From an uncultured Gammaproteobacteria bacterium (GTDB lineage: Bacteria; Patescibacteriota; Patescibacteriia; UBA1558; GWA2-36-10): DNA of 64,000 bases. Position numbers and translations under genes: made by a program. The notes below the pieces were generated by a model. The model worked only from the letters and a program-made list of their open reading frames with translations, ran no database searches and was not told the DNA's origin. The DNA lies in assembly GCA_964633905.1 (NCBI GenBank), contig CAZWIT010000001.1, positions 65,535 to 129,534 of the forward strand, given 5' to 3'. Of the stretch, positions 7,051 to 59,143 are shown piece after piece; positions within the stretch are counted from its first letter, which is position 1; each line of letters starts with the position of its first letter.

Positions 7051-7059
7051 ATTATAAAA

Positions 7060-7106
7060 AGAGTCCACCTCCGCCGTTTGGCGGATGGCGGACTCTTTTT
7101 TGGTTG
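7060..7106 (+). terminator. Intrinsic terminator after trpS
   Basis: GAGTCCACCTCCGCC-GTTT-GGCGGATGGCGGACTC followed by TTTTTT. Confidence 0.7.
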
Positions 7107-7213
7107 ACATTATTGTCTATTTTTTATAATCTATATTTAGTTTTATATGATCTTTAACATATATATATTTTGTTTTTTGTGGGGCTGGCACAAAAGAGAA
7201 AGGTAGGTGCTCC

Positions 7214-8356: not shown

Positions 8357-8413
8357 CAATATAATTAAGCTATTTTTTGAAAAACCGATGTGATATCACA
8401 TCGGTTATTATAT

Positions 8414-26287: not shown

Positions 26288-27460
26288 ATGCCTCAAAAGA
26301 AAAGCGATTTTAATTATTTATTTTTAGTATCGATCTTTTTATTTATTTTTTTGCCGCAACTTTCTTTGGCTCTTGGGTCAAAGCAAAAAATAATACAGGA
26401 CAGTACCAAATACGTAGATAAATATTTTAGTAGTAATTTAAAAACAGGCGATCAGGATTTTATCTATTTAGGCGAACAAAAAATAGCCACCGTAGATGCT
26501 CAAGGCAATGTTTTTTACAATTTAGATGACCATTTGGCTTCGCCGACTTTGATAACTGATTCAGTTGGTCAAATTGTCTCTAGTCTTGATTATCAGCCTT
26601 TTGGCAAATTAAATTCGGCTGTTTCTAGTACTAATGATCATTATCAATTTAGTGACAAAGAGTTTGATGCTGAAAATAATTGGCAGTATTTTGGCGCTCG
26701 TTATTATGATAATATTTTGGGTCGTTTTAGCTCGCTTGACCCCGTTTATCTACAAAATGTTGGGCAATATTTGGCTGATCCGCAGCAGCTCAATAGCTAT
26801 GCTTATGCTCGTAATAATCCAATTAAGTTAATAGACAAGTCTGGAGAGAAAGTTTCGGAATACCAGCCATATAAGGCTAAAAATAATTTTTATAATGTAG
26901 GCGAAGCTTTTGGCGTATATCGTGGCTTAACATTAAAAAGCGGGGGAGAATTTACCGGCAGTGATAAGCACGAGTATCAATGTGTTGCTCTGGCTAAGGA
27001 CTTTGTCAAGCAACAATTTGATGTTACTATTGGCAGGATAGGGAGCGGTAGTAATTTTGGTAAGCAAGAAATACTTAATAGTTTTAAAAATGCAGGTAAT
27101 TTTGAGGTTTATAAAAATGGTGCTACAGTTATGCCGCAAGAAAATGATATTATTTCTTGGCAGGGCGGTGGCTATGGTCATGTAGGTGTTATTGCGGAAA
27201 TAAGTTTTGATCCAAAATCAGGCAGTGGTTATGTGTATACGCTAGAACAAAATGCTAGTAAAAATAGCGCTTTGTTTGCCCAAACACTGCAAAGAAATTA
27301 CAATAAAGCTGGTCAGGCTACTTATACTATTGGTGACCGATGGCAGAGTTATCAGGTGCAGGCCTGGGCTCGCTATGGAAACCAAAGCCAATTACCAGCT
27401 GAAAATTATTCACCAATTTTATATACGCCAGCTCCTAATTTATCAAAATATTATGAATAA
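26288..27460 (+). CDS. Secreted mini-RHS protein: signal peptide + terminal YD repeats/RHS core tip + C-terminal CHAP (amidase/peptidase) domain
   Basis: Signal peptide MPQKKSDFNYLFLVSIFLFIFLPQLSLALG. RHS core tail YFGARYYDNILGRFSSLDPV…NSYAYARNNPIKLIDKSGE. CHAP-like Cys (HEYQCVALAKDF) and His (GHVGVIAEI). Confidence 0.7.
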   Translation: MPQKKSDFNYLFLVSIFLFIFLPQLSLALGSKQKIIQDSTKYVDKYFSSNLKTGDQDFIYLGEQKIATVDAQGNVFYNLDDHLASPTLITDSVGQIVSSLDYQPFGKLNSAVSSTNDHYQFSDKEFDAENNWQYFGARYYDNILGRFSSLDPVYLQNVGQYLADPQQLNSYAYARNNPIKLIDKSGEKVSEYQPYKAKNNFYNVGEAFGVYRGLTLKSGGEFTGSDKHEYQCVALAKDFVKQQFDVTIGRIGSGSNFGKQEILNSFKNAGNFEVYKNGATVMPQENDIISWQGGGYGHVGVIAEISFDPKSGSGYVYTLEQNASKNSALFAQTLQRNYNKAGQATYTIGDRWQSYQVQAWARYGNQSQLPAENYSPILYTPAPNLSKYYE

Positions 27461-28151
27461 AAAATTATTATTTTTTTTAAGCCTAGTTTTTTTGTTAGCG
27501 ATTACTGTGGCTTTGTTAGTATATTATTTAAATAAATCAACGAATTCACATTTAACAAATCAAGTAAATAATATTTCTTGGTTAACATATAAAAATGAAT
27601 CTTTAGGTTTTCAGATTAATTATCCACAACAGATGGAGTTGTGGAATGGTAATTGTATCTTAGAAGATGGTCAGGCAAAAATTACCAATGGCTTAGTACC
27701 TACCAAAATGTTCGTTGATACTGCGGCGGTTTGGATTTCCTATGAATATTTTTATGAAAATGTTAATGGAGCTTGCAAAAGAATTGATAACTCAATAGCT
27801 CTCCTAAAGGAACAAAGTGCTTGGAAAATTGTTATAGCTGATAATATTAATAATGATAAAGATCTAGATATTTTTATTAAAAAATTCTATAAAAATTTTG
27901 GTAATTGTCAATTAGAAGAAAAGCGTCCTGCTATACAAAATGGCGTTTATGATGTTTTTACAGCTTATGATGGTAAGGACTTAGGAGAGTCAGAATGTTT
28001 TATTAATACTTGGTCAGTTATTAAATATTATCCAGCTAATAAAAAAGTGATTGCTTGGACAATTGGGCAAGAGCCATACTTTTGGTCTGACAATAGGGGA
28101 GCGATTACATTTGATCAAGCTATGGCTGATAGTTTTATGTTTTTACAATAA
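27453..28151 (+). CDS. Candidate immunity protein for the CHAP toxin (N-terminal TM/signal anchor)
   Basis: ATG 27453 overlaps the upstream stop (ATGAATAA). MNKKLLFFLSLVFLLAITVALLVYY… The track ORF 27252 is a 5' extension inside the upstream gene. Confidence 0.45.
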   Translation: MNKKLLFFLSLVFLLAITVALLVYYLNKSTNSHLTNQVNNISWLTYKNESLGFQINYPQQMELWNGNCILEDGQAKITNGLVPTKMFVDTAAVWISYEYFYENVNGACKRIDNSIALLKEQSAWKIVIADNINNDKDLDIFIKKFYKNFGNCQLEEKRPAIQNGVYDVFTAYDGKDLGESECFINTWSVIKYYPANKKVIAWTIGQEPYFWSDNRGAITFDQAMADSFMFLQ

Positions 28152-28551: not shown

Positions 28552-31068
28552 ATGTCTTTAAATAAAGAATCATCATTTAGTTTTGATAACGTTTTTAATG
28601 AAAAAACGGAGTTTGTGCAATATACTCTGGATACTTATAACCGTATTTATAATTTACCTACAATCAAATACGAGGGGGATGTTTCGGATGAATTATTTGC
28701 TTATGTGCAAAAAAGGAATTTTTTTGTACTTTTAGTTATCTATGATGGGAGTGGTCGTATATTTCTGGAAAGAAATTTACAAGAACAACTTTACTGGTCT
28801 TTGCCTGGTGGTAGCATTTTAAAAAATGAAGATATTCATACGGCGGTTAGAAGAATTTCTGAGAGAATACAAACAGATGGTAATAAAATGATTTTAGGTG
28901 AGATTGAACCAATTGCTTTTATCAAGAATAAATTTAATTGTCAGGATAATAGTTTTGTGCATCATGGTATAGCCTTTACTGCTAGGATTAGAAATTTTAA
29001 AGAGATTAATTGTGACGAATCTTTGGGGGCATTTATTCATCCAACTGATCAAGAGATTGATAAAATTAATAGGTATGCTAATCAGCAGGTGGTAAAATTA
29101 GTCTTGAGCAGATTAAAGTTTTTTGATACGCCTTTTCCAGAAATAGAGGTTGCTACTAATGAAAATTGTGCTTGGCGATATTTTATTCATAATAAGTTCG
29201 TTAAAAAATTTATTTTAACTTCAAGAATCAAGAAAAGATCAGAATTTTTAGATAAAATAAAAAATCTAATCGGTGAAGCTGGTAGTTTCATAGATGTCTC
29301 TTGTGGTGATAGTGATATTATTAATAGTGTTAATAATGAAAAGTTTAATTATTTGGTGGCTAATGATATTAGTTGGAGTCAAATAAAGTCTATTCAGAGT
29401 AACGATAAGAAAATTATTTTTACTAATCATAATGCGACTTATTTACCATTTAAGGAAAATTCTTTTGCTGTAGCATATTGCGCTAATACCTTGCACCACA
29501 TGTCTTCTAAAAAAGAGTTGTTAAAATTATTGGATAGTATTTTTAGAGTTGCTGAAAAATTGATTATTGTAGAGATAGAAAAACCAAATAATTCAGGCCT
29601 TATTCCATATTTTTTACATAAATATTGGTATGCCGGTTTTTTAAAAGATGTTGGTGGCGCTTATCTATCACGTCAAGATTTTTATAGTATCATTTCTTCA
29701 CATTTTGAAAAAAATGCTAGTATAAAATTTGATAATTTTTCCAATATTCAAGGAAATTATTTGATAGCCGAAATATCAAAAAAGAAAAAATCAGACTTAT
29801 CAACTCGAAAAATTATTGAGGTAGAGGCTAAATATATTTGTAAGGATATTTTAGCATTAATTAAAGAGTGCCAAAAAAAAGGTTTTATTTTACAAAAAGA
29901 CTTGTTGGAAAAAGATGAATATTTTACTGATATTAATGGGCAATTTGTTAAAGATAGAACTTGTTTAAGATTGCGTAGTAATAATGATAAACTGGAGTTG
30001 ACTTTTAAGGGCAAGTCCCAAGTGCCATCTAATTTTTATTTGAAAGAAGAGCATAATATTATTTTAGACATTAGACAATATAATGATTATCAAGAGATGA
30101 TTAATTCTTTAGGTTATCATAATTATGTTGAGGTCAAGAAAAAGCGTCGGGTATACCTTAAACAAGAAGTAGACTTTGCTATAGCTGTAGTTTTAGATGA
30201 GTTGCAAAATATTGGTTCATTTGTAGAATTTGAGATTAGTTATATTCGCGGCCAAAATTCACATTCAGAGGATGATTTTGTCAATATTTTTGATAAAATA
30301 GTAGATGAATTTAAGGTTTGTGGTTTAACGCCAGCGGACGAACCTTATCGGGATTATGTCGCGAAATTTTATGCTAATAATATTTTAAATAAAGATAAAT
30401 TAAGCACTATTTTATTTGATTTTGATGGCACAATCGCTCCATCTGAACAGATTTTTTTTGATGCTTACAAAAAAACAGCGACAGAGTTTTTTGGGCAACA
30501 AATCTCAATAGATGATTATCGTAAATTTGAGTTGGATCAAGAAGGCTGGTTATTTGATCATCTTTCAGCTGGTTCCATAAATGGCAATAGGATTTTTGGC
30601 AAAGAAACATTTATGGAGGCAGTTTATCTTGAATACGAAAATTTATTAGTTAAAATATTTAATAATAATAGTTTATTTTTAAATTTACATGGCATAGAGA
30701 TGCTAAAAAAGAAAGGCTATAAATTAGGGTTGGTTTCTTCCTCTAAAAGAAAATATATTGATTTAATATTAAATAATCTAAATCAAAATGGATTATTTGA
30801 TGTTATTATAGCCAGAGAAGATGTTGATAATTTGAAGCCTACACCTGATCCTTATTTGTTAGCTATGGATAAATTAGCAGTTAAAGCAGATGAGTGTCTG
30901 GCTGTAGAAGATTCTAACAAAGGTATTATGGCAGCAACCCAAGCTAAAATTAATTGTGTATCAGTTCGTAAAGATTCTATTTATGAAGAATATAATAATA
31001 GTAAATACGGTGATAGATCATTTGCTAGCGTTTTGCAAATTTGTTTGATTTTGTTATATGCAGATTAA
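28552..31068 (+). CDS. Multidomain protein: Nudix-like + class I SAM-methyltransferase-like + CYTH (triphosphate tunnel) + HAD hydrolase
   Basis: Nudix-like LPGGSILKNEDIHTAVRRISERI. CYTH start IEVEAKYICK. C-terminal HAD motifs ILFDFDGTIA … LGLVSSS … VEDSNKG. Confidence 0.7.
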   Translation: MSLNKESSFSFDNVFNEKTEFVQYTLDTYNRIYNLPTIKYEGDVSDELFAYVQKRNFFVLLVIYDGSGRIFLERNLQEQLYWSLPGGSILKNEDIHTAVRRISERIQTDGNKMILGEIEPIAFIKNKFNCQDNSFVHHGIAFTARIRNFKEINCDESLGAFIHPTDQEIDKINRYANQQVVKLVLSRLKFFDTPFPEIEVATNENCAWRYFIHNKFVKKFILTSRIKKRSEFLDKIKNLIGEAGSFIDVSCGDSDIINSVNNEKFNYLVANDISWSQIKSIQSNDKKIIFTNHNATYLPFKENSFAVAYCANTLHHMSSKKELLKLLDSIFRVAEKLIIVEIEKPNNSGLIPYFLHKYWYAGFLKDVGGAYLSRQDFYSIISSHFEKNASIKFDNFSNIQGNYLIAEISKKKKSDLSTRKIIEVEAKYICKDILALIKECQKKGFILQKDLLEKDEYFTDINGQFVKDRTCLRLRSNNDKLELTFKGKSQVPSNFYLKEEHNIILDIRQYNDYQEMINSLGYHNYVEVKKKRRVYLKQEVDFAIAVVLDELQNIGSFVEFEISYIRGQNSHSEDDFVNIFDKIVDEFKVCGLTPADEPYRDYVAKFYANNILNKDKLSTILFDFDGTIAPSEQIFFDAYKKTATEFFGQQISIDDYRKFELDQEGWLFDHLSAGSINGNRIFGKETFMEAVYLEYENLLVKIFNNNSLFLNLHGIEMLKKKGYKLGLVSSSKRKYIDLILNNLNQNGLFDVIIAREDVDNLKPTPDPYLLAMDKLAVKADECLAVEDSNKGIMAATQAKINCVSVRKDSIYEEYNNSKYGDRSFASVLQICLILLYAD

Positions 31069-31139: not shown

Positions 31140-31203
31140 AAAAGCGTTTTGGAGGATAAAATTATTTTAAACAATTAATCAAAATTATATGCTGAGGTTA
31201 AAA
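31140..31203 (+). repeat. Direct repeat DR2 (64 bp), contains the start codon of the giant RHS gene
   Basis: Same 64-mer as DR1 with tc→ct at the ATG(c/t)(t/c)GAGG position. ATG 31189 of the RHS ORF lies inside it. Confidence 0.9.
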
Positions 31204-34200
31204 GCAAAATTTAAAATGAAAATAAAAATTTTTAGTTTGGCTATTTTATTGCTGCTCAATAATTTTGCTTATTTACCAAAAGTAAGCGCGCAGGCAAAAA
31301 TAGTTGAGCCAGTAATGCCAGCGGATTTAAATATAGACGAATCAGTTTTGTCTTTGCCAATACCAGAAGAAGTAAAGCCAATTTTGATTGATCCTGATTT
31401 AAAACCGGATTTATTGCCAATAGAAGAGCCTGGTGATATTTTGGCAATAGAGCCAAAGCCAGGCAATCTAGAAATAGAGACTTTGACCGAAGAAGATCCT
31501 GAACCAAATTTTGATAAAGGCGAAAACAAAATTTCTTTAGAAAAATTAAATTTAAAAACCGAAGGCAATTCTGGGGCTTTGGTTTATGATTTTCCTTTAG
31601 CTATTCCTCAAGGCAGAAATGGTTTGCAGCCCAATCTTGCCTTAAGCTACAATAATCAAGATACAGAAAAATTAAATCAGTTTGGCTATGGGTGGTCTTT
31701 AAATCTTCCCAGTATCAAAAGAATTAATAAAAAAGGTTCGGATAATCTCTATGCTGAATCTTTTTTTAGTTCTTCCTTATCGGGTGAATTAAAATTAGTA
31801 AATTCCCTTGATGGTCTGCATGGTGAATATCAAGCTGAAGTAGAATCTGGTGATTTTATTAAATATGAATTAACTGAAAGTAATTATTGGCAAGCAACTG
31901 ATAAAACAGGTAATATCTATACTTTTGGTGTTGCTACCAGTTCTCGTCAAGATAATCCTAGTGATCAAGCTCAGATTTACCAGTGGTTTTTAAGTGAAAC
32001 TCGGGACACTAATGATAATTATATAAAATATGAATATTTTAAGGATGCTGGTCAGATTTATCCTGATACCATAACTTATACTGGTAATGATACAACAGAT
32101 GGTATTTTTACTATTGAGTTTTTAAGAGAAACAAGAGCTGATAATTTAGACTCTAATAACACTGGTTTTAATGTTATTAATAATTATCGTATTTCGGAAA
32201 TAGATATTAGTATTAATGATAATTGGGTTAAAAAATATGAACTGGATTATATTACTAGTAATAACGGTCAAAGCTCATATTTAGATACTATTTTAGAAAG
32301 TGCTAAAGATGAAAGTAATAATATAGTTAGTTTACCAATAAATGACTTTGATTATCAGGAAACTGTTAAAAGTTTTACCTTAGAAGAAAATTATGAGTTT
32401 CCTTTAATTTTTCATTATGATTACGGTAACACTGAGAAAGACCAGGGTGTAAGATTGGCTGATGTTAACGGCGATGGATATATAGACGCAGTCCATGCTT
32501 ATTATCGTGAATATTATCAGGAAGAGCAGCACTACGTTCTTGATTATAAAGATGTATATATAAATGACGGCAATGGTCATTGGAATTTAGATGAAACTTA
32601 CAATTTCCCAGAGTATTTTTTATTTTATGATGGTGATCAGGGTGTTAGATTAGATGATGTTAATGGCGATGGCCTGGCTGATGTGGTCAGGGCTTATTAT
32701 CGTGAGTATGACCAAGAGGGACAACATTATATTAATGACTATAAATATGTTTACATTAATAATGGTCATGGTTGGGATTTAGATGAAAACTATGAACTAC
32801 CAACTTATTTTATTTCATATTACAAAGAAAGAGGCGTGAGATTAACGGATGTAAATGGGGATGGCTTAGTAGATTTTGCTAAATCTTACTATGTTTGGAA
32901 CGGTAGTACAGAGTATATATATAAAGAGGTCTATATAAATGACGGCAATGGTAATTGGAATTTAGATGAAAGTTATGATATTCCTGTATATTTTAATTAT
33001 ATGAGCTGGGGTACAGACAGCAATCAAGGTGTGGAATTAGCTGATGTAAACGGAGATAATTTAGTCGATATTTTAAGATCATCCCATATTGTAAATAGTA
33101 ATGAATATATTATTAAAGAGGTCTATATAAATGACGGCAATGGTAATTGGAATTTAGATGAAAGTTATGATATACCAGTGTATTTCTACTATATTAGTTG
33201 GAGTACTGTAGTTGATGAGGGTGTAAAGTTAATGGATATCAATAAAGATAATTTAGTTGATTTTGTAAAATCTTATGGAGTATCTAGTAACGAATATCAA
33301 GAAGTATATATTAACAATGGTCATGGTTGGGATTTAGATGAAAGTTATACTTTACCAATAGATTTTTCTAGAAGTGGAGATAGAGGTGTACGAATAGGAG
33401 ATGCTGATGGAGATGATATAGGGGGTTTGATTCAGGGTTTGCGTTGGTGGAATTCACAAGGGTCTCATGATGAACAAAAGGTTTATCTTAACAACGCCAA
33501 AATCGAATCTCTCTCTACTATTAAAAACAGTCAAGGCTCAGAAATAAATATTAGTTATCAGCCATCTACACAATATAAAGATCAAAGTGGCAATCTACTT
33601 AATCCTAACCTGCCTTTTGTAGTGCAAACAGTTAAACAAATCACTATTAATGATGGTTTAGATAATGAATCAACTATCGATTATCAATATAGTGATGGTC
33701 AGTATTATTATAATAATCCCGAGCAAAGAAAAGTAGCTGGCTTTGGTCAAGTAGAAAAAATTATTGATGATACTAAAACCATTACTTATTATCACCAAGG
33801 CAATGAATCAAATTCTAGCCAAGGCGAATATCAAGATAGCTATTATAAAATCGGCAAACCATATCGTAGTGAAACTTATGATAATAATAGTAATAATTTG
33901 CTTTCTCAAGAATTATATAAATGGGAAGAAACTGATTTAGGTCATAATAATAAATTTGTTTATAACACTTTAAAATCTAGCACTGACTTTACTGGAGCTA
34001 CTAAGTCAACAGCTATCCAATATAATTATGATTTAACTTCAGGAAATTTGTTAACGGAAAATAATCTGGGTGAAGTAGTTGTTAATACTGATACTGGTGA
34101 AATCACTAGTCAACTAACTGGTGATGAAAAAGATACAGCTTATGCTTATGCTGAAAATATAGAGGATCATATTTTAGCAGCACCAATGACTAAAGTAATT

Positions 34201-37200
34201 AGTGATAACTCGGATAGTAAAGAGCAAAATCTTTATTATGATAACTCTTTGGTTTTAGGACAAGTAGAAAAAGTAAATTTAACCAAAGAGGATTATCTTG
34301 AGCAAGATGTTGAAGTTAATAGAAATTTTAACAATCTTGGCTTAGTAACTGAAGAAATATCGCCTGAAAATGCTACTACCACTATTGCTTACGATAGTAA
34401 TAATTTATATCCAGCTTCTTCTACTAATGCTTTAAACCAAGTTAGTTATACAGAGTATAATTTACTCAATGGTCAAGTAGCAACTACAACTGCTTCTAAT
34501 GGACTGACAACAGTTAATAAATATGATGCTTTTGGTAGGTTAAAAGAAGTATGGATTTCTAATCCTGATAGTCCTTCAAATTTAATTAAAAAACAAGAAA
34601 TCAGCTATCAGGATATTACTTTACCAAGATATAAAGAAAGCAAAGATTATTTTGATAATAATCTCTACACTACTACGCGCGAGTATTACGACGGTTTAGA
34701 CAGAGTTATTCAGAAAAAAAGCAGCTTAGCTAGCACAAATGAGTTTACTACCCTTGATATTAGTTATGATTCACAAGGCAGGGTAGCTAGACAATCTTTG
34801 CCGTATATTACTAGTAGTATTGTCTACAGTAGTGCTGATTTATCAAAGCCTGCCAAAACTTATACCTATGACGCTTTAGGCAGAGTTTTGACAGAAGTAA
34901 CACCAGTGGGGGCTACTAACTATGATTATAATGGTTTTACTACTCAAATTACTGATGCTAATAATAATCGTAAGGATTTGACTAAAGATGCCTACGGTAA
35001 TTTAGTGCAAGTCAAAGAATACAATGGCGCCAGTGTCTATACTACAAATTACGAATATACTTTGACTAATAAGCTGAAAAAGATTACTGACTCGTCTGGT
35101 AATATTAGAAACTTTAGCTATGACGCTCTAGATAATCTAGCTTGGCAAGATATGGTGCACAAAACATCGGTTAGCAATCCGGCTAAGATTCAATACACCT
35201 ATGATAAAAATGGCAACGTCTTAACGGAAACATCTTTTAAGAATGATGCTATATCTTACACTTACGATGATATTAATCGACCCTTATTAGAAAAATTAAG
35301 TGGCAATACTAAAATTAGTTATACTTATGATCAACATGGCGATATTGGCCAGCTAAGTTTTGCCGATTATGGCAATGGCAATTCTAAGGCCTATGATTAT
35401 GATATTTTGGGTAGAGTCAAAACAGCTACTACCACCATTGCCAATGAAGTATTTGTCATGGAGTTTGACTATAATTTAGCTGGCGCTTTAAAGATAATAA
35501 AGTATCCAGACAATAAGACAGTTAGCTACAACTTTAATGCTATTGGTCAAGTAAGCGGTGTGAATTTAGCTACTTCTACTTTGGCTACAAATATCACTTA
35601 TAATCAAAACGGCCAGATGACGCATGTAGAAAGGGCTAGTGGCGTGACTACTGATTATACTTATGATCCAGCGCAAGCTTTTCGCTTAACTAGAATTTTA
35701 TCTACCCAAGCTACTTCCACTTTGCAAGATCTTAATTATACTTATGATAACGTAGGTAATATTTTGACTTTAGTTGATAATGCTAATATGGATCTTAAAA
35801 AATCAGCTACTTATGCCTATGATGATTTAAATAGGCTACTCACAGCCACGGTCAGTTATCCTAATCATCCTGATAAAAATTATACGCAAAGCTTCACTTA
35901 CGACAGTATTGGTAATATGACCAGTAATTCTGACTTAGGCACTTTAAACTATAACAATGGTCAGCCACATCAATTATCTAGCTATGGTTCTAGAAACTTC
36001 CAATATGATGCAGCTGGTAATATGACTAGAAACGGCGGTATTAATAAATTCTCTTGGGACTATCGTAATCGTTTAAGTCTGTCTAACGACATTGTCTCAA
36101 ATAATAATACTTATTACCAATATGATCATAATAACCAAAGATTCTTAAAATATACTGAAGACTATGTCTTTATCCCTCCAGATATTGAAGAAACACCAAC
36201 GGTACAAGGCAGTATGATGCAGGCAGAAGGTTTGGATGGTGGTGAAGAACAGCTAGATGGAGTCGGTCATTGGGAATGGCAGAGGATAAAAGAGGATAAG
36301 TATATTGAAAATTATTTTGAAAAAAATGAGACTGATCAGACTAAAGCACATATTTATTTAAACTCTATCAAGATAGCAACTATTAATAATAATGATAATC
36401 CATATTATATTTTAGGAGATCATCTGAATTCTAGTTCAATATTAACAGATGGCTCTGGTGCTACGGCTCAATTGTCAGATTACAAGCCATTTGGTAGTAT
36501 TAACTATGATAACAAGCTCGTTGATTTGAAAAATGATTATAGTTTTACTGGACAGGAGTATGACGAAGAGTCTAGTTTGCAGTATTATGGGGCTCGGTAT
36601 ATGGATAATGAGATAGGGAGGTTTACTAGTGTAGATCCAGTAATAATTCAAGTAGAGTCTTTATCTAAAATATTAGCAGATCCTCAATCCCTAAATAGCT
36701 ATGTTTATAGCAGAAATAACCCAATAATATTAGTAGATAAAGATGGTAATTTTTGGCAAATATTTACAGCCGGAGTTGGGGCAGTAGGTGGTGCTATTTG
36801 GGGCGCCAAAGATAGCTATAACATGGTTAAGAATACTTTTCAGGGTAATTTTGACGCCGCTGCATATTATAGTGAAAGATCATTAAATAAATTAGGTACA
36901 GGTTTTATGGTAGGTCTTGGAGTTGGTGAGTTGGCCAAGCCATTTGTACAGACTTATGCGCCTAATACTTATAATGCTATAAATGGCAGTAAGTCTTTGC
37001 CTGTGTTAACTGATAAAGTTGGCGATCCTGGTCAAGGGTATTATCCTGGAAGAAATACGGGATTTAAATTAGATTCACAAGGGAGAATCTTAGACGGTAA
37101 AAATTTAGCTAATGGTAATTATAAAGTAGTAGTAAAAAATAACAATGTTATATTTGGCAAGGAAAAAAGCATTCCGGGCGGTGGTGATGACTTTAGTCAT

Positions 37201-37386
37201 GCAGATTTAGTAAATGGAGGAGATGTTAATTTTGCTGGTACTATGAGATTTAAAAATGGTCAACTACAATCATATAACGAATGGTCTGGGCATTATCAAG
37301 GAAAAGGTAATCAATGGGTGTTAGAGCAACAATTTGAAAAGTCCGGAATAAATTATAGAAATAAATTTGTAGATGTTTCGTATTAA
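31189..37386 (+). CDS. Giant RHS/YD-repeat polymorphic toxin (SpvB/TcB-like N-domain + FG-GAP propeller + YD repeats + RHS core + variable C-terminal toxin domain)
   Basis: Signal peptide. SpvB-like GNSGALVYDFPLAIPQGRNGLQPNLALSYNNQ…GYGWSL. Repeated DVNGDG FG-GAP blades. Many YD repeats. RHS core QYYGARYMDNEIGRFTSVDPV…NSYVYSRNNPIILVDKDGN. ~270-aa C-terminal domain of unknown type. Confidence 0.9.
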   Translation: MLRLKAKFKMKIKIFSLAILLLLNNFAYLPKVSAQAKIVEPVMPADLNIDESVLSLPIPEEVKPILIDPDLKPDLLPIEEPGDILAIEPKPGNLEIETLTEEDPEPNFDKGENKISLEKLNLKTEGNSGALVYDFPLAIPQGRNGLQPNLALSYNNQDTEKLNQFGYGWSLNLPSIKRINKKGSDNLYAESFFSSSLSGELKLVNSLDGLHGEYQAEVESGDFIKYELTESNYWQATDKTGNIYTFGVATSSRQDNPSDQAQIYQWFLSETRDTNDNYIKYEYFKDAGQIYPDTITYTGNDTTDGIFTIEFLRETRADNLDSNNTGFNVINNYRISEIDISINDNWVKKYELDYITSNNGQSSYLDTILESAKDESNNIVSLPINDFDYQETVKSFTLEENYEFPLIFHYDYGNTEKDQGVRLADVNGDGYIDAVHAYYREYYQEEQHYVLDYKDVYINDGNGHWNLDETYNFPEYFLFYDGDQGVRLDDVNGDGLADVVRAYYREYDQEGQHYINDYKYVYINNGHGWDLDENYELPTYFISYYKERGVRLTDVNGDGLVDFAKSYYVWNGSTEYIYKEVYINDGNGNWNLDESYDIPVYFNYMSWGTDSNQGVELADVNGDNLVDILRSSHIVNSNEYIIKEVYINDGNGNWNLDESYDIPVYFYYISWSTVVDEGVKLMDINKDNLVDFVKSYGVSSNEYQEVYINNGHGWDLDESYTLPIDFSRSGDRGVRIGDADGDDIGGLIQGLRWWNSQGSHDEQKVYLNNAKIESLSTIKNSQGSEINISYQPSTQYKDQSGNLLNPNLPFVVQTVKQITINDGLDNESTIDYQYSDGQYYYNNPEQRKVAGFGQVEKIIDDTKTITYYHQGNESNSSQGEYQDSYYKIGKPYRSETYDNNSNNLLSQELYKWEETDLGHNNKFVYNTLKSSTDFTGATKSTAIQYNYDLTSGNLLTENNLGEVVVNTDTGEITSQLTGDEKDTAYAYAENIEDHILAAPMTKVISDNSDSKEQNLYYDNSLVLGQVEKVNLTKEDYLEQDVEVNRNFNNLGLVTEEISPENATTTIAYDSNNLYPASSTNALNQVSYTEYNLLNGQVATTTASNGLTTVNKYDAFGRLKEVWISNPDSPSNLIKKQEISYQDITLPRYKESKDYFDNNLYTTTREYYDGLDRVIQKKSSLASTNEFTTLDISYDSQGRVARQSLPYITSSIVYSSADLSKPAKTYTYDALGRVLTEVTPVGATNYDYNGFTTQITDANNNRKDLTKDAYGNLVQVKEYNGASVYTTNYEYTLTNKLKKITDSSGNIRNFSYDALDNLAWQDMVHKTSVSNPAKIQYTYDKNGNVLTETSFKNDAISYTYDDINRPLLEKLSGNTKISYTYDQHGDIGQLSFADYGNGNSKAYDYDILGRVKTATTTIANEVFVMEFDYNLAGALKIIKYPDNKTVSYNFNAIGQVSGVNLATSTLATNITYNQNGQMTHVERASGVTTDYTYDPAQAFRLTRILSTQATSTLQDLNYTYDNVGNILTLVDNANMDLKKSATYAYDDLNRLLTATVSYPNHPDKNYTQSFTYDSIGNMTSNSDLGTLNYNNGQPHQLSSYGSRNFQYDAAGNMTRNGGINKFSWDYRNRLSLSNDIVSNNNTYYQYDHNNQRFLKYTEDYVFIPPDIEETPTVQGSMMQAEGLDGGEEQLDGVGHWEWQRIKEDKYIENYFEKNETDQTKAHIYLNSIKIATINNNDNPYYILGDHLNSSSILTDGSGATAQLSDYKPFGSINYDNKLVDLKNDYSFTGQEYDEESSLQYYGARYMDNEIGRFTSVDPVIIQVESLSKILADPQSLNSYVYSRNNPIILVDKDGNFWQIFTAGVGAVGGAIWGAKDSYNMVKNTFQGNFDAAAYYSERSLNKLGTGFMVGLGVGELAKPFVQTYAPNTYNAINGSKSLPVLTDKVGDPGQGYYPGRNTGFKLDSQGRILDGKNLANGNYKVVVKNNNVIFGKEKSIPGGGDDFSHADLVNGGDVNFAGTMRFKNGQLQSYNEWSGHYQGKGNQWVLEQQFEKSGINYRNKFVDVSY
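32923..33171 (+). repeat. Intragenic duplication inside the RHS propeller region
   Basis: A 57-nt identical stretch, aaagaggtctatataaatgacggcaatggtaattggaatttagatgaaagttatgata, occurs at 32923-32979 and 33115-33171, 192 nt (one blade) apart. Confidence 0.85.
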
Positions 37387-37408
37387 TTTAGATAAATAAT
37401 ATTAAATT

Positions 37409-37948
37409 ATGGACATAAAAGAAATTTATAAAAAAATTATTGAACTATCATCGCAGATTTTTAATAATGATGAAGAGCAACATAAGATTGATAATAAGAT
37501 AGAAAGATTGATTGAAGAGGTTAATATAAAACTAAGATCTTTAACTGATGAGGAAAAGGATAGATTGTTATTGCCATTTTTAAATGACTTCCATAGGTTT
37601 AAATATAGAACTTATATATTAAGGACTTTGGAAAATGTTTCCACATTTAATATTAACAATTTTTTATTAGGTGAGATTTTGTTGGAAAATGATGTGTCAG
37701 GGGTAATCCCATATTTACGTATTGTTTCTTTATCAACCGGTAAAGATATTATTAAGAATCAAATAAATGATATTTATATTTCTAACAAAGTTATTCCCGA
37801 AACAAAAGAATTTAATAATCTTTGTGTGTTACTATTTTATATTGGTATTAGACAAGATGTTGCTAATAAAATGAAGCAAGATATTAATAAATTAGGTCCG
37901 AATTCAAAGAAATTCATAACTCATATATTAGAGAACTATAAGTCATAA
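37409..37948 (+). CDS. Candidate RHS immunity protein 1 (hypothetical, 179 aa)
   Basis: Small AT-rich cytoplasmic ORF 22 nt downstream of the RHS toxin gene. Confidence 0.45.
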   Translation: MDIKEIYKKIIELSSQIFNNDEEQHKIDNKIERLIEEVNIKLRSLTDEEKDRLLLPFLNDFHRFKYRTYILRTLENVSTFNINNFLLGEILLENDVSGVIPYLRIVSLSTGKDIIKNQINDIYISNKVIPETKEFNNLCVLLFYIGIRQDVANKMKQDINKLGPNSKKFITHILENYKS

Positions 37949-37963
37949 TTTAAAATAGATATT

Positions 37964-38386
37964 ATGTTAAATTATGAAAATGTTTTAGAAAAATTATTAG
38001 ATTATGTCCCTAAATTGAATAATTATAATGATTATAAGTATATTTCTGACAATGGAAATAGGAATAATCAGTATGTAGTTTTTGGTGTATTGCAGAATTT
38101 TTTTAAAGAAGTCTTTAAGGAAAAGAAGATTAAGATTTTAGAAAGTATATCAAAATTTTTAGAAGAAGCCTGTTCATCTGACGATCTTAAACTTAAAGAA
38201 TTAGGGATGTTCGGATTTATGGAGAATCTTTACGGAAATCCTGAAGATTTTGATAAAGATATGTTGGATTACTTTGGTAAAAATACTAAACAAGTATTAA
38301 TTGATACAGTAGAACACAACTCCAAAATAGGCATGGAAGATAAGGAAAAAATTTATAAACTATTCGGTGATAAATTGAATAAATAA
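37964..38386 (+). CDS. Candidate RHS immunity protein 2 (hypothetical, 140 aa)
   Basis: Second small ORF immediately downstream, the typical toxin-immunity arrangement. Confidence 0.4.
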   Translation: MLNYENVLEKLLDYVPKLNNYNDYKYISDNGNRNNQYVVFGVLQNFFKEVFKEKKIKILESISKFLEEACSSDDLKLKELGMFGFMENLYGNPEDFDKDMLDYFGKNTKQVLIDTVEHNSKIGMEDKEKIYKLFGDKLNK

Positions 38387-38513: not shown

Positions 38514-38885
38514 ATGAAAATAAGCCAATCGGCTTCTTATTTTCTGATTATTTTGATCAGCTTGGCTTTGATTTTTACTTTTGTTAGTAATAAAAGTAAA
38601 AAAGAAGATAAAATATTATTACAGACATTGAGTTGTCAATCTGATAAAATTGATCAATCTATTTTAAGTTTAAACGCCAAAACTACTTTGATTGGCGCTT
38701 ATATTAATTTTAAAAAAGTGCCAATTACTCAAGCAGAAAAAGATCAGCTTAATAAATTAAAAGTTATGATTGATGAAAAAAGCTGGATTTTTGAAAGAGC
38801 GCAAGCACAAATTCCGACTGCTAGTTTATGCGAATTAATTCAATCGGAAAACATTGATTATATTTTTATTCCTCAATTCAACTAA
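38514..38885 (+). CDS. Hypothetical small membrane-anchored protein
   Basis: N-terminal TM (SYFLIILISLALIFTFV). Ends 1 nt before pgk. Confidence 0.4.
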   Translation: MKISQSASYFLIILISLALIFTFVSNKSKKEDKILLQTLSCQSDKIDQSILSLNAKTTLIGAYINFKKVPITQAEKDQLNKLKVMIDEKSWIFERAQAQIPTASLCELIQSENIDYIFIPQFN

Positions 38886-41762: not shown

Positions 41763-43346
41763 ATGCCAAGAATAAATTTTCATCGCAATGATAAAACAAG
41801 TGGGCCGGTAGTTTTGGCTATTTTAGATGGCTGGGGTATTAGTAAGGAAAATACAGGTAATGCTTTTGTTTTAGCTAAAAAACCAACTTTTGATAATTTA
41901 TTTAAAAAGTATCCACATGCAAAACTAGCCGCGTCTGGTGTCGAGGTTGGTTTGCCTGCTGGTCAGCCCGGAAATTCAGAGGCTGGTCATATGAATATTG
42001 GTGCTGGTCGGGTAGTTGAGCAGGATGCTGTTACTGTTTCCCGTTCTATTAATAATGGTACTTTTTTTAAGAACCCAGCTTTTTTGCAAGCCATCAAGCA
42101 TGTGAATAAACATAAATCTAGTATTCATCTGATGGGTTTGATTTCCAATGTTTCTAGCCCGCATTCTGATACTGATCATCTTTTATCTTTGTTAAGCTTG
42201 TTTCAACAAAAAACTAAACAACCGATTTATTTGCATTTATTTACTGATGGCCGTGATAGTCCAATTTTTGCTTCAGCTAAAATTTTAGCTCACTATCGTC
42301 ATATTTTTGATTCAGAGCGCGTGCATATTGCTACTATCATGGGTCGTTTTTATGCTATGGATAGAAAAAAGGCTTGGGATAGGACAAGGGCTGCTTATGA
42401 GGCTATGACTTTAGCCAAAGCCGAATTTTTTGCAGCTAATGCCGAGTCTGCTGTATCAGCGGCTTATGCTAGAGGTGAGAGTGATGAGTTTATCAAACCC
42501 ACAGTTATTTTAAATGGTAAAAAACCAGTAGCTACTATTGGTAATAATGACTCGGTAGTATTTTTTAATTTGCGTTCTGATCGAGCGCGACAGTTGAGCA
42601 AAGTTTTTGTTCAAGCTGATTTTGTCAAAAAAAATCCAGGTGCTTTTAAACCCAGTAAAGTTTTAAATAATTTAGTGTTTGTGGCTTTGACTGACTTTGG
42701 GCCAGATTTAGATAGTATTTTGACTGCTTATCCAGGTATAGATTTAGCTGATACTTTAGTGGCCAGTCTAAAAGATAAACGTCAGCTTTATATTGCTGAA
42801 ACCGAAAAATATGCCCATGTTACTTATTTTTTTAATGGCGGTTATGATCATGCGATTGTTGGTGAGACTAGAGTCAATATTCCTAGTCAAGAAGTAGATT
42901 CTTATGATATGTCTCCAGCTATGTCAGCATCACAAATTAGCAAATATATTGTTGATGTCTTACAAAATAAGCAATTTGATTTTGTAACTGTTAATTTTGC
43001 TAATCTTGATATGGTTGGACATACTGGCAATCTCCAGGCTGCTATTAAAGCCATTGAAGCAGTAGATTTGGCTTTAACTGATATTTTAAAAGCAGTTTTT
43101 GATCATAATGGTACTTTAATAGTTACAGCTGATCATGGTAATATAGAAGAGATGATAAATTTAAAAACTGGCGAAATTGATACCGAACATTCTATTAATC
43201 CAGTGCCATTTATTGTTGCTCAAAAAAATATAAAATATAAAATAAAAAGTAATGGCAGTTTGAGTAATATTGCTCCAACTATTTTAGAAATTATGAATGT
43301 TGATAAACCACTGGCCATGACTGCTAAATCTTTAATTATAAAATAA
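41763..43346 (+). CDS. gpmI: 2,3-bisphosphoglycerate-independent phosphoglycerate mutase (copy 1)
   Basis: ILDGWG, GNSEAGH (catalytic Ser), YAHVTYFFNGG, ADHGN. Confidence 0.9.
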   Translation: MPRINFHRNDKTSGPVVLAILDGWGISKENTGNAFVLAKKPTFDNLFKKYPHAKLAASGVEVGLPAGQPGNSEAGHMNIGAGRVVEQDAVTVSRSINNGTFFKNPAFLQAIKHVNKHKSSIHLMGLISNVSSPHSDTDHLLSLLSLFQQKTKQPIYLHLFTDGRDSPIFASAKILAHYRHIFDSERVHIATIMGRFYAMDRKKAWDRTRAAYEAMTLAKAEFFAANAESAVSAAYARGESDEFIKPTVILNGKKPVATIGNNDSVVFFNLRSDRARQLSKVFVQADFVKKNPGAFKPSKVLNNLVFVALTDFGPDLDSILTAYPGIDLADTLVASLKDKRQLYIAETEKYAHVTYFFNGGYDHAIVGETRVNIPSQEVDSYDMSPAMSASQISKYIVDVLQNKQFDFVTVNFANLDMVGHTGNLQAAIKAIEAVDLALTDILKAVFDHNGTLIVTADHGNIEEMINLKTGEIDTEHSINPVPFIVAQKNIKYKIKSNGSLSNIAPTILEIMNVDKPLAMTAKSLIIK

Positions 43347-43347: not shown

Positions 43348-44925
43348 ATGAAAAGACCTCGCCCAGTAGTTTTGCTTATTCTTGATGGTTTTGGTATTGC
43401 GCCACCTTCGCGCGCTAATGCTATTTCTTTAGCTAAAACCCCAAATTTTGATAAATATTCGGTGCATTATCCAATCATGCCCATTGCTGCTTCGGGTGAA
43501 GCGGTAGGCTTGTCTTGGGGCGAGATGGGTAATAGCCAAGTCGGACACTTATCTTTGGGCTCAGGTTTAATTCCTTATCAAAATTTACCTAGGATTAATA
43601 AATCAATTACCGACGGCAGTTTTTTTAATAACGAAGCATTTTTAGCAGCCATCAAGCACACTCAAGACCATAATAGTGCTTTGCATATTTTAGGTTTAGT
43701 AAGTTCTGGTGGTGTGCATAGCTATAATGAACATCTTTATGCTTTGTTAGAATTAGCGCGTAAGCATAAAGTCAATCAGGTTTATGTGCATGCTTTTTTG
43801 GATGGTCGCGATACGCTCTATAATAGCGGTGTTAATTTTATTTCTAAATTACAAGAAAAATTAAGAAGTATTGGCGTCGGAGTTATCGCAACTGTGGGAG
43901 GGCGTTTTTATAGCATGGATAGGGATAATCGTTGGGATCGGGTTGCTAAAGCTTATGAGGCTATGGTTTTGGGTCAATCTCAAGATAAATATGACGATCC
44001 TATTACTGCTATTCAAGAGTCTTACAAAAAAAATATTTTCGATGAAGAAATGGTGCCCAGTGTTATTATTGATGACTTGGGGCAAGCTAAAGGTAAGATT
44101 AAAGACGGTGATGCAGTAATATTTTTTAATTTTCGTTCAGATCGGGCCAGACAAATGACAGAAGCTTTGACTGTTCCGGGTTTTGAAAAATTCCCTCGTG
44201 AATATTTTAAAGATTTATTCTTGGTGACCATGACCGAATATGAAAAGGATTTGCCAGTTAAAGTTGCTTTCCCACCATTGATAATCGATACGCCACTAGC
44301 TAAAGTAATTTCAGATGCTGGCTTAAAACAATTGCATATTGCTGAAACCGAAAAATATGCACACGTTACTTACTTTTTTAATGGCGGGCAAGAGCAAATT
44401 TATGCAGGTGAAGATAGGATTTTGGTGCCTTCTCCCCAGGTTGTGTCTTATGATCAAAAACCAGCTATGTCAGCACGGGAAATTACTAATAAGATTAATC
44501 AGGCTATTAAAGAAGGTAAATATGATTTTATTGTTGCTAATTTTGCTAATCCTGATATGGTGGCTCATACCGGTAATTTGCAGGCGACAATTGAAGCTAT
44601 TGAATTATTAGATCAATTAATTAATGAAATTGTAGAGGTTACTTTGTCTTATGAGGGCGTTGTTTTAATTACCGCCGATCATGGCAATGCTGAAGGTTTA
44701 TTTGATTTACAAACTGGTGAAATCGAAAAAGAGCATAGTAATAGTCCGGTGCCTTTATTTATCATTGGTTCGGAATTTGCTGGTAAAAGCGTTTTAACTG
44801 GTCTTACAAGCTCGGATCTTAGTCGCATTACGCCAGTTGGTGTTTTGGCTGATGTGGCCCCCACAATTTTAAAAATTATGGGTATTAAAAAACCACCAGC
44901 TATGACTGGCAGTTCCTTAATTTAA
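43348..44925 (+). CDS. 2,3-bisphosphoglycerate-independent phosphoglycerate mutase (tandem paralog, copy 2)
   Basis: ILDGFG, GNSQVGH, YAHVTYFFNGG, ADHGN. ~40% identity to copy 1. 1-nt intergenic gap. Confidence 0.85.
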   Translation: MKRPRPVVLLILDGFGIAPPSRANAISLAKTPNFDKYSVHYPIMPIAASGEAVGLSWGEMGNSQVGHLSLGSGLIPYQNLPRINKSITDGSFFNNEAFLAAIKHTQDHNSALHILGLVSSGGVHSYNEHLYALLELARKHKVNQVYVHAFLDGRDTLYNSGVNFISKLQEKLRSIGVGVIATVGGRFYSMDRDNRWDRVAKAYEAMVLGQSQDKYDDPITAIQESYKKNIFDEEMVPSVIIDDLGQAKGKIKDGDAVIFFNFRSDRARQMTEALTVPGFEKFPREYFKDLFLVTMTEYEKDLPVKVAFPPLIIDTPLAKVISDAGLKQLHIAETEKYAHVTYFFNGGQEQIYAGEDRILVPSPQVVSYDQKPAMSAREITNKINQAIKEGKYDFIVANFANPDMVAHTGNLQATIEAIELLDQLINEIVEVTLSYEGVVLITADHGNAEGLFDLQTGEIEKEHSNSPVPLFIIGSEFAGKSVLTGLTSSDLSRITPVGVLADVAPTILKIMGIKKPPAMTGSSLI

Positions 44926-57592: not shown

Positions 57593-57700
57593 GGTATAAA
57601 AAACAAGACCCTTATTTATACTCCTTGGGTCTTAGGTAGGAGTTGGTGGTAGGCGGGCCCGAAGCTTGCAGCTTCGAACCCGCCGTACCGGTCGGAGGTG

Positions 57701-58525
57701 CTAGCCGCGCCGCGCCTTGGCAGCCGCGAGCAGCTGGTTGGCGATGACACGGGCCTCGCCGTTCACGGGCTTCAGCGGCTCGTGATCCAGCTTGGCAATG
57801 GCTTCATCCTGCACCGTGAGGTCACGGATGACCTCGTCGATGCTCTCGACGTCCGGGATCGCGATCGCGATCCCCATGCCGCCGTGGTCTCTCATGCAGA
57901 CCAGGCAGAGCCTCCAGACCTTGTCGCCGAGCGGAACCTGGGGCACGCCGTTCTTCCCGAACACGGGAATCCCGGCCTTGCCATCGATGCCGGTGCCCAG
58001 CTTGGTGACCATCTGCAGGGTGTCGGCCTCGTCTTCGCTGCGCTTCGTCTTCATCTGTGAGACGAACTCGCAGACACGGATGAAGACGCGGTCGGACGGG
58101 TAGTCCGGGTTGGTGGCGTAGAAGGCCAGCGCCGCGTTGATGTCCTTGGCGTACTGGTCGTTCTCCATCGCCATCGCCGACTTCTGCTGCTGCAGAGCCT
58201 CGATGCAATCGCGGACCCGGTCGTGGTCATGGTTCATCATGCCCACGGCCTCGTCCTGGTCGGGCCAGATCCGCATGACGAGCATGCGGTAGCCGTCGCC
58301 CGGAACCTGCAGGCCGCGCCGACGGTCGTCGATGACGACCGACAGGGGCTTGGCGGTGCCGATGCCGTGTTCGGCCGCGCCGTCTTGGACGTACACGACG
58401 CCGTAGGCGTTGCGGTACTCGCTGCGGGTGTTGCCGGTGGCGGTGGTCGGAGCGGTGGCGGTGGTCGGAGCGGTGGCGGCGGGAGCAGCGGCCTTGGGGG
58501 CCTTGGTGTTGGTCTTACGAGCCAT
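57701..58525 (-). CDS. Hypothetical 274-aa protein, ~65% GC foreign cassette gene 'B' (Ala/Pro/Thr-rich N-terminal tail)
   Basis: Coherent high-GC3 codon usage on the minus strand. SD AGGAGG 8 nt before ATG. Own consensus promoter P2 and downstream hairpins. The N-terminus MARKTNTKAPKAAAPAATAPTTATAPTTATG… is low-complexity. No motif recognised. Confidence 0.6.
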   Translation of the reverse strand: MARKTNTKAPKAAAPAATAPTTATAPTTATGNTRSEYRNAYGVVYVQDGAAEHGIGTAKPLSVVIDDRRRGLQVPGDGYRMLVMRIWPDQDEAVGMMNHDHDRVRDCIEALQQQKSAMAMENDQYAKDINAALAFYATNPDYPSDRVFIRVCEFVSQMKTKRSEDEADTLQMVTKLGTGIDGKAGIPVFGKNGVPQVPLGDKVWRLCLVCMRDHGGMGIAIAIPDVESIDEVIRDLTVQDEAIAKLDHEPLKPVNGEARVIANQLLAAAKARRG

Positions 58526-58623
58526 CTTGCTTACCTCCTGAAAATTAGAATGTGCACATCCCCTAAAGTGACAACAGTACCAACAGTCAGTACGTTTATT
58601 AGGGGATTTTTCATTATATCATA

Positions 58624-58652
58624 TATACAAATATTTGTCAAGGGTATTGAAA
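58624..58652 (-). promoter_or_regulatory. Promoter P2 (minus): TTGACA-17-TG-n-TATAAT
   Basis: Minus strand TTGACAaatatttgtatatatgaTATAAT. Confidence 0.65.
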
Positions 58653-58713
58653 AGCCCCGGCACTAGGTGCGTCGGGGCTTGGGGCGAAGTGGTACAACAC
58701 AGTCGGCTTGCTA

Positions 58714-59091
58714 CTAGATGTAGCAATTGATCTTGACCCTGGAAATGACTTCTCCAGAGACGCGATCACGAAGTAGTACTTCGTAATTGCCCACCACCAA
58801 GGTGGCTTTGGGATCGTTCATGACTTTAGCCAACAAGCGGCCATTCTTATAGATTTCCATGTAGGCCAGCTTCCTGGCCTGGTTGGATACCATGCAGATG
58901 GGCTTTTCATCAGCCAAGCGGAGGCGGATCGAATCGCCATCGACACAGACGTAGCTAGTATCGATATAGCGCGGGTTGGGCCGAACCAGGATGGTCGCTT
59001 CCCCAGGCTTGGTGATCGGCTGCGAATTGCAGGCGGCAAGCAGAGTCAGCGAAAGAAACAGCAGGCTGGCGATCAGGAAGAACTTACGCAT
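58714..59091 (-). CDS. Putative lipoprotein, GC ~55%, foreign cassette gene 'C'
   Basis: Signal peptide plus lipobox LLAAC. SD AAGGAGG 6 nt before ATG. Own promoter P3. Confidence 0.55.
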   Translation of the reverse strand: MRKFFLIASLLFLSLTLLAACNSQPITKPGEATILVRPNPRYIDTSYVCVDGDSIRLRLADEKPICMVSNQARKLAYMEIYKNGRLLAKVMNDPKATLVVGNYEVLLRDRVSGEVISRVKINCYI

Positions 59092-59143
59092 CTTAACCCT
59101 CCTTGGTTTTTTGCCACTTCAATTGTCCTTAAAGAGCTTATAT

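Follow-up and report, generated by a model that had tools for sequence, protein, structure and literature searches.

The window analysed here is a stretch of 64,000 nucleotides of contig CAZWIT010000001.1. It encodes a giant RHS polymorphic toxin followed by two small open reading frames (ORFs), and this report concerns the toxin domain at the C-terminus of that protein together with its candidate immunity gene. The RHS gene reads open across 2065 codons with no interruption. A preliminary description of the locus placed the whole feature at 31140-38386. The end of this interval holds, being the end of the second small ORF, and the start was shifted, since position 31140 is intergenic and the RHS gene starts at 31189. 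The features of the locus, with the evidence for each in brackets, are the following (aa, amino acids; TM, transmembrane):

31189..37386, + strand: RHS polymorphic toxin gene, 2065 aa plus stop (ORF list and translation, Pfam, NCBIfam, PDB sequence matches)
31189..31290, + strand: putative Sec-type signal peptide, aa 1-34, predicted cleavage after VSA (sequence reading, hydropathy)
31564..32067, + strand: SpvB/TcB-like N-terminal domain, aa 126-293 (Pfam PF03534, E 1.4e-15)
32386..33468, + strand: FG-GAP beta-propeller of six blades, about aa 400-760 (Pfam FG-GAP_3/FG-GAP, E 4e-13)
33586..36480, + strand: YD/RHS repeat shell, about aa 800-1764, boundaries approximate (Pfam, NCBIfam, Rhs structures)
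36481..36750, + strand: RHS-associated core with the autoproteolysis-type motif NNPIILVDKDGN, aa 1765-1854 (TIGR03696)
36751..36981, + strand: pre-toxin linker with two glycine-zipper hydrophobic segments, FWQIFTAGVGAVGGAIWGA ... LGTGFMVGLGVGELA, aa 1855-1931 (sequence)
36982..37383, + strand: toxin domain of an unnamed family, 134 aa, aa 1932-2065 (comparison with the relatives P0001 and L002, family alignment A2, AlphaFold)
37409..37948, + strand: candidate cognate immunity protein, 179 aa, no signal peptide or TM segment (pairing with the toxin at three loci)
37964..38386, + strand: DUF7674 protein, 140 aa, orphan immunity or accessory gene (Pfam PF24722)

The N-terminus of the RHS protein (MLRLKAKFKMKIKIFSLAILLLLNNFAYLPKVSA|QA) is its sole strongly hydrophobic 19-mer; 19-residue windows with a Kyte-Doolittle hydropathy above 1.2 are confined to aa 4-16. 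The SpvB-like domain is matched additionally by TcdB1, residues 28-211 of 6l7i_F aligning with aa 122-284 (phmmer against PDB, E 9.7e-6). The propeller contains six D-x-N/D-G/K-D blade motifs starting at aa 425, 490, 554, 619, 683 and 738, with a spacing of ~64 aa. The shell is recognized by the models RHS_repeat of Pfam (E 2.3e-19) and RHS_core and YD_repeat_2x of NCBIfam (E 1.4e-20 and 1.2e-13), and its PDB sequence matches are Rhs 7q97 (phmmer E 1.2e-22), 8qja and Tse5 8cp6. The NCBIfam model Rhs_assc_core (TIGR03696, E 8.2e-18) covers aa 1765-1853. The motif variant NNPIILVDKDGN occupies aa 1843-1854 and ends in DKDGN (aa 1850-1854), which by its sequence appears to be a variant of the DPxGL-type motif, with the predicted cleavage site directly ahead of the tail. 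Of the features listed in the preliminary description, the SpvB domain, DVNGDG blades, YD repeats, RHS core and DKDGN region are all confirmed by Pfam, NCBIfam and the motifs, and the signal peptide is predicted from the sequence and its hydropathy. Its view of the protein as a fused TcB/TcC-like RHS polymorphic toxin is borne out as well, by PF03534, the propeller, the TcdB1 match and a tail swap in a sister locus (see below).

The tail beyond DKDGN is 211 aa long and consists of a 77-aa glycine-zipper hydrophobic linker and a 134-aa globular domain. The domain was delimited by comparison with the only close relatives of the tail, namely P0001, encoded on contig L001, and the RHS protein of contig L002; identity among the three domains is 75-81%. 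The C-terminal domain of ~270 aa proposed earlier has therefore to be shortened, and the range given for it, residues ~1795-2065, includes ~60 aa of the Rhs core. The Gly-rich hydrophobic stretches of the linker, GVGAVGGAIWG and GTGFMVGLGVG, lie directly behind the cleavage motif. A linker of the same type is found ahead of the same toxin in P0001 and L002 and ahead of another toxin in the main RHS of L001, and because of this last case it is regarded as a generic pre-toxin module outside the toxin fold. The 211-aa tail has no Pfam match even at E<=10. The toxin domain is likewise without a match in NCBIfam, PADLOC, PHROGs and PDB sequences, phmmer and profile searches of the latter giving only insignificant bulb-lectin-like matches to the N-terminal hairpin (E 0.3-1.5).

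The 179-aa ORF begins 22 nt past the toxin stop. Its homologues stand directly behind the same toxin in L001 (52% identity, E 2e-57) and L002 (54% identity), with E values of 1e-56 to 7e-63 overall, and the toxin together with an ORF of 177-179 aa is kept at three distinct loci (the window, L001 with its duplicate L054, and L002), the ORFs being 48-54% identical to each other. Among 5.8 billion proteins only 4 homologues were found, and no match in Pfam, NCBIfam or PADLOC. The maximum hydropathy of the protein in a 19-residue window is 1.13, and no hydrophobic segment is present. On these comparisons the 179-aa protein is the candidate cognate immunity protein of the 134-aa toxin domain; the role is assigned to it because only this ORF, and not the 140-aa ORF behind it, co-occurs with the toxin at L001 and L002.

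The preliminary description expected both downstream ORFs to be immunity genes, and this expectation holds for the first of them only. The 140-aa ORF begins 15 nt beyond the 179-aa ORF on the same strand and is followed by a gap of 127 nt and then by a 123-aa ORF and pgk. It matches Pfam PF24722 (DUF7674) with E 3.1e-8 and 34.1 bits versus a cutoff of 27, over profile positions 2-106 of 111. It could be argued that both ORFs are needed, with the DUF7674 protein serving as a second cognate immunity protein or as an adaptor: the gene is tightly placed between the first immunity gene and the gap, its product is acidic (isoelectric point, pI, 5.1) and soluble, it is retained in the near-identical contig L003, and two-immunity toxins are reported in the literature (PMC11699363). 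The gene is, however, missing from the two further distinct loci where the toxin is kept with a 177-178-aa immunity ORF. Its place behind the pair is taken in L001 (and L054) by an unrelated 131-aa ORF (BLASTP E 24), and the gene that comes next in L002 lies on the opposite strand. Moreover, the protein falls into an independent Pfam family; tblastn with it against plasmids gave no match. The requirement for both ORFs is thus unlikely, and from the distribution of the DUF7674 gene, an orphan or accessory role is more likely for it than that of a second cognate immunity gene. The 123-aa ORF (38514..38885) was considered as a third immunity gene and rejected, as it is kept beside pgk in contigs L004 and L035 and has a TM or signal segment. 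When the curated libraries (Pfam, NCBIfam, PADLOC, PHROGs) were run on the tail, the domain, 38 members of the toxin family and both small ORFs, DUF7674 in the second ORF was the sole match.

The polymorphic nature of the locus can be seen directly by comparing it with related loci. The closest genome found is that of L004 (contig CAZHLU010000003.1 of a metagenome-assembled genome, MAG), whose phosphoglycerate kinase (PGK) is 93% identical to that of the window. The next PGK relatives are 51-65% identical and include MAGs labelled Patescibacteria, Parcubacteria and, in several cases, 'uncultured Gammaproteobacteria', which is the label of L004 too. The window is attributed to a Patescibacteria-type genome by these PGK relatives and not by a taxonomic assignment. 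L004 has a syntenic RHS gene (1349..8467) encoding 2263 aa, with the extra length in the propeller region. This protein is 65-67% identical to the window RHS through aa 1853, where its motif reads IDPDGE, and then the homology stops exactly. Beyond IDPDGE there are an unrelated, helical-looking tail of 179 aa with another Gly-rich linker and an unrelated 106-aa ORF, both untyped in Pfam; the 123-aa ORF and pgk downstream of RHS are conserved again. The L002 shell has only 41-70% identity to that of the window, but the toxin domains have 85%. In L001 and in its duplicate L054 from the Joint Genome Institute (JGI) metagenomes, which returned nothing further, this toxin forms an orphan cassette placed downstream of a main RHS with another toxin. 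Replacement of the tail in L004 and reuse of the toxin in L002 and L001 therefore constitute a signature of tail/immunity swapping, and in these alignments RHS tails and immunity genes appear to be exchanged between related loci. Relatives of the toxin subfamily were absent from GTDB species genomes.

A word-indexed search with the toxin domain retrieved a single homologue. An exhaustive HMMER scan of 1.84 billion representatives gave 40 proteins at E<=1e-3, that is, P0001 and 39 distant relatives (E 3e-8 to 1e-3). In the family alignment A2 (38 sequences) H2004, which is H73 of the domain, and G2024 are invariant, and G2010, V2013, A2016, G2017, S2033, G2034, H2035 and Y2036 are near-invariant; the Ser, Gly, His and Tyr of the SGHY loop (aa 2033-2036) each occur in 35-37 of the 38 sequences. 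The consensus can be written as (Y/F)VV..dG...H.(D/S)L..G..V..AG(E/T)..f.NG.(L/I)...NN.SGHY.P, followed by a helix. The pattern of conservation is enzyme-like, the family being marked by H2004, an A-G and an N-G turn and the SGHY loop. With a profile built from 36 distant members only, the window tail reaches 92.5 bits (E 1e-30), compared with 5.7 bits for the best of 1000 shuffles, and on account of this difference the membership of the window domain in the family is regarded as solid.

Neither Pfam nor NCBIfam has a relevant model for any of the 38 family members at E<=0.01, and the family profile has no PDB sequence match. The earlier statement that the C-terminal domain matches no named toxin family accordingly stands, now extended to the 38 members by Pfam, NCBIfam, PADLOC, PHROGs and PDB. 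A well-known toxin family paired with its own immunity family, the case in which the system would have been typed already, was sought in the same library scans and did not appear. The domain also remains uncharacterised in the sense that it has no named family, but it is not a singleton: judging from the scan it belongs to a sparsely populated and phylogenetically wide family that no curated library names, and the contigs bearing the family range from low-GC Patescibacteria-type to high-GC ones. The relatives occur in settings typical of toxins. Their carriers include PT-HINT, filamentous-haemagglutinin repeats and the eCIS_core domain. In L052 and L053 the family domain is one cassette in an array of short toxins that share an N-terminus and alternate with small acidic ORFs, the array being flanked by EndoU_bacteria and AHH nuclease cassettes, and in L051 a relative adjoins PT-HINT and RHS toxins. 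The ORFs downstream of different subclades are mutually unrelated and untyped in Pfam, and so offer no hint of the activity. A literature search returned nothing relevant on SGHY/GHY motif toxins, DUF7674, phosphohistidine phosphatase as a polymorphic toxin or Patescibacteria RHS; the preprint text on PT1-PT9 contains no sequences with which the toxin domain could be compared.

Structure prediction, proposed in the preliminary description as a check, was carried out with AlphaFold. The 38-sequence alignment gave a toxin-domain model with a predicted local distance difference test score (pLDDT) of 82.9 and a predicted TM-score (pTM) of 0.77, versus a pLDDT of 41 with a 2-sequence alignment. The order of elements in the model is a beta-hairpin, a short helix starting at the invariant His, a second hairpin, the SGHY loop and a long helix. 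Foldseek with this model against PDB listed nothing at E<=1e-3. Against BFVD the only matches with a probability >=0.99 were two unnamed viral proteins, G8DGH9 and E5EQ39 (E 2.8e-4 and 3.4e-3, query-normalised TM-score 0.54 and 0.49, respectively).

Taken together, it is highly probable that the locus encodes an RHS polymorphic toxin with a cargo from an unnamed family and the 179-aa protein as its cognate immunity protein. In Rhs and TcB-TcC proteins a closed cocoon encloses the tail, which is freed by an aspartyl autoprotease of the Rhs core. By analogy, the RHS protein of the window would be exported by Sec, and its SpvB-like head, six-bladed FG-GAP propeller and YD shell would form a closed cocoon around the last 211 residues. 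The aspartyl autoprotease of the core would cut the tail at the ...VDKDGN motif, and the tail would be released into the target cell. The glycine-zipper linker may then carry the cargo across the membrane of the target cell, and the 134-aa domain would presumably act in the cytoplasm there; this location is suggested because the 179-aa immunity protein is soluble, has no signal peptide and co-varies with the toxin.

As for the chemistry of the toxin, our guess is a metal-independent, His-dependent hydrolase of phosphate esters. The conserved His, the Ser-Gly-His-Tyr loop, the frequent Glu and a semi-conserved basic residue suggest, as far as the alignment goes, acid/base catalysis on a phosphate ester. 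Cytoplasmic polymorphic toxins are mostly nucleases. In view of this and of the His/His/Ser/Tyr(/Glu) residue set, a metal-independent RNase with H2004 and H2035 as the acid/base pair is, tentatively, the most likely single activity, and it is to be taken as possible rather than as probable.

Several observations weigh against this picture as a whole or in part. No TcA/VRP1 domain or other delivery partner is present among the genes of the window (Pfam, large neighbouring ORFs), and the proposed route into the target cell is deduced. At least one relative, P0011, has no same-strand downstream ORF. In 14 of the 39 relatives (among them P0003, P0004, P0013, P0014, P0040, P0008, P0011, P0015 and P0031) the domain occurs in 2-4 tandem copies with a spacing of ~220-315 aa, an unusual arrangement if the toxin tail is catalytic. 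Several of the two-copy proteins, P0008 and P0011 included, have ATDY, STDY, SINY or APDY in place of SGHY in their second copy, and it is possible that such tandem copies with a degenerate second copy make up a pseudo-dimeric enzyme. The Glu after A-G is often conserved but is Thr in the window protein and 6 other members. The pI of the family is mixed (4.9-10.6, median 8.2), not uniformly basic as in many nucleases. Finally, none of the Pfam, NCBIfam, PADLOC, PHROG, PDB sequence and Foldseek PDB searches gave a match that indicates an activity.

A different chemistry would follow if the toxin domain were a divergent PHPT1/Janus fold, killing by hydrolysis of phosphohistidine or other phosphoramidate bonds in the target, for instance those of two-component kinases, the phosphotransferase system (PTS) or nucleoside-diphosphate kinase. 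The order of secondary-structure elements in PHPT1 is presumably the same as in the predicted model of the toxin domain, and the agreement would speak for such a fold. When the order is laid out by eye, FKYVLIRV/YH53ADIY/LGGGRI/YGYS94MAYG of PHPT1 corresponds to YKVVVKNN/SH2004ADLV/FAGTMRF/NEWS2033GHYQG of the toxin, so that H2004 would take the place of the catalytic His53, and S2033 that of Ser94 in the phosphate loop. The searches argue otherwise. The Pfam model Ocnus (PF05005) matches none of the 38 family members; hhalign of A2 gives a probability of 0.05% with PHPT1 alone and 0.2% with a 97-sequence PHPT1 alignment, with 8-10 columns aligned, and in global mode it produces a nonsense alignment. 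Scores in hmmsearch --max do not exceed 0.3 bits. The PHPT1 profile was vertebrate-only, with an effective sequence number (Neff) of 2.9, which makes the profile test a weak one. PHPT1 is not among the PDB sequence matches even at E<=10, nor is it listed by Foldseek against PDB. In addition, its phosphate-binding Arg78 would be matched by Glu or Thr in the toxin family, where conserved equivalents of Lys21 and Arg45 are lacking. A PHPT1-like fold is accordingly regarded as unlikely, and we consider it improbable that the H...AG...NG...SGHY domain is a bacterial PHPT1/Janus offshoot stripping phosphohistidine or phosphoramidate marks in the target cytoplasm, or that it catalyses an undescribed His-dependent reaction there. 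If it were such an offshoot, this would be a toxic activity so far unreported for polymorphic toxins, and the tandem and degenerate copies of the relatives would reflect an obligate (pseudo)dimeric enzyme.

It is very unlikely that the glycine-zipper segment (aa 1855-1931) is itself the lethal part, inserting into and depolarising the target membrane in the way the C-terminal fragment of Tse5 reportedly does, with the 134-aa domain as an accessory: in its favour are the two Gly-rich stretches directly behind the cleavage motif and the relationship of the shell to that of Tse5 (8cp6), but in the L001 main RHS it is a different toxin that stands behind such a linker, an unrelated tail follows another Gly-rich linker in L004, conservation between loci is highest in the globular domain (85%, vs 67% in the linker), the globular domain alone is common to the distant family members, neither hydrophobic segment exceeds 1.2 in a 19-residue window, which is below the typical hydropathy of a TM helix, and the 179-aa immunity protein is soluble with no TM segment, immunity proteins against membrane toxins being usually membrane proteins. 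An RHS toxin that delivers a cytoplasmic 134-aa cargo remains the preferred reading.

The delivery system is of a standard kind, and so the value of the locus lies in its cargo, a compact 134-aa domain whose fold is predicted with confidence. This domain, with its invariant His and SGHY loop, is found on RHS, haemagglutinin-type, PT-HINT and eCIS carriers and has neither a curated family nor a solved relative. New toxin tails turn up regularly. The toxin/immunity pair is nevertheless clean for experiments, and the sister locus L004 with its different tail is a natural control. If the pair were characterised, a further toxin family would be gained, possibly together with a toxic chemistry that is new. 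Such work would also be among the first to give a functional handle on the way in which ultra-small, cell-dependent Patescibacteria attack neighbours or hosts without machinery like that of type VI secretion (T6SS); RHS toxins in Patescibacteria-type genomes are little covered in the searchable literature.

Large ORFs neighbouring the RHS gene encode, according to Pfam, an AMP-binding enzyme, an aminotransferase, a histidine kinase, a CHAP protein, a NUDIX/methyltransferase/CYTH/HAD fusion, PGK, enolase and cofactor-independent phosphoglycerate mutase. The fusion protein (28552..31068, + strand; 838 aa), directly upstream of RHS, is an unusual multi-domain protein of nucleotide metabolism that combines NUDIX (a weak match), S-adenosylmethionine-dependent methyltransferase, CYTH and HAD-phosphatase domains. 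The phosphoglycerate mutase genes are tandem paralogues (41763..43346 and 43348..44925, + strand) directly after enolase and pgk, and the pair is also present in L004.

The preliminary description had proposed a search for orphan modules matching this RHS core, and one was found in the window. At 26288..27460 (+ strand), ~4 kb upstream, lies a miniature RHS gene whose 390-aa product carries a separate signal peptide, the final YD repeat and an Rhs core. The core is 47% identical to aa 1701-1854 of the large RHS protein (tblastn E 3e-39) and has LIDKSGE at its end; a CHAP peptidoglycan-hydrolase domain (Pfam E 5e-9) is fused to it. The ORF after it (about 27453..28151, + strand; start probably MNKKLLFF) encodes a membrane-anchored protein, a candidate extracytoplasmic immunity protein.

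Elsewhere in the window a sharp GC island extends over 57,700..59,100, with 64-73% GC over 57,700-58,500 versus ~33% in the genome and with coding on the minus strand. It contains an ORF of 274 aa (57701..58525, minus strand) that has AGGAGG as its ribosome-binding site and matches nothing in Pfam, PHROGs or PDB, and a lipoprotein-like ORF of 125 aa (58714..59091, minus strand); an AT-rich TATATCATATATA element bounds each of the two genes. The island sits between two tRNAs and rplU and has no Rfam family match. Either high-GC DNA of foreign origin has been inserted here or the assembly is chimeric.

Among known systems, the Rhs/YD toxins (Photorhabdus laumondii Rhs1, 7q97; Pseudomonas aeruginosa Tse5, 8cp6; VgrG-Rhs, 8qja) have in common with the window RHS the YD/RHS shell, the Rhs core with a DPxGL-type motif at its end (DKDGN in this case), a C-terminal toxin swapped between close relatives, an immunity gene directly downstream and orphan tail/immunity cassettes. 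In contrast to them, the window RHS has no PAAR, VgrG or T6SS context; it has instead a Sec signal peptide, an SpvB head and an FG-GAP propeller, it belongs to a Patescibacteria-type genome, and its cargo comes from an unnamed family.

With the TcB-TcC cocoon of Tc toxins (TcdB1, 6l7i; TcdB2-TccC3; YenB-YenC2) it shares the SpvB-like N-domain, the beta-propeller, the RHS shell and a hypervariable tail predicted to be encapsulated and auto-cleaved, all of them fused here in one chain. It differs from Tc toxins in that no TcA-like injector gene lies in the window and that the propeller has six FG-GAP blades; its immunity gene, moreover, indicates a bacterial rather than an insect target.

Regarding the cargo itself, PHPT1/Janus (PF05005; 2nmm, 2ai6), a 14-kDa phosphohistidine phosphatase, is a eukaryotic housekeeping enzyme and not a toxin. 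The toxin domain has no sequence or profile similarity to it, and the basic phosphate-binding residues are not kept. Tox-REHH is a divergent HNH DNase in which R46, H52-E53, H102 and H121 coordinate the metal, and it is carried by RHS, type V and type VII secretion systems (T5SS, T7SS), extracellular contractile injection systems/Photorhabdus virulence cassettes (eCIS/PVC) and Tc (bioRxiv 10.64898/2026.09.22.753552). Identity of the present domain with Tox-REHH was rejected in a comparison by motif only, the toxin family having two conserved His and no H-E pair. What the two do have in common is a C-terminal domain that lacks both a Pfam match and a match of the global fold, many carriers and several unrelated immunity families. 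The system as a whole is of a known kind, an RHS toxin with its immunity protein in a TcB/TcC-like build, and what is new in it is the cargo family.

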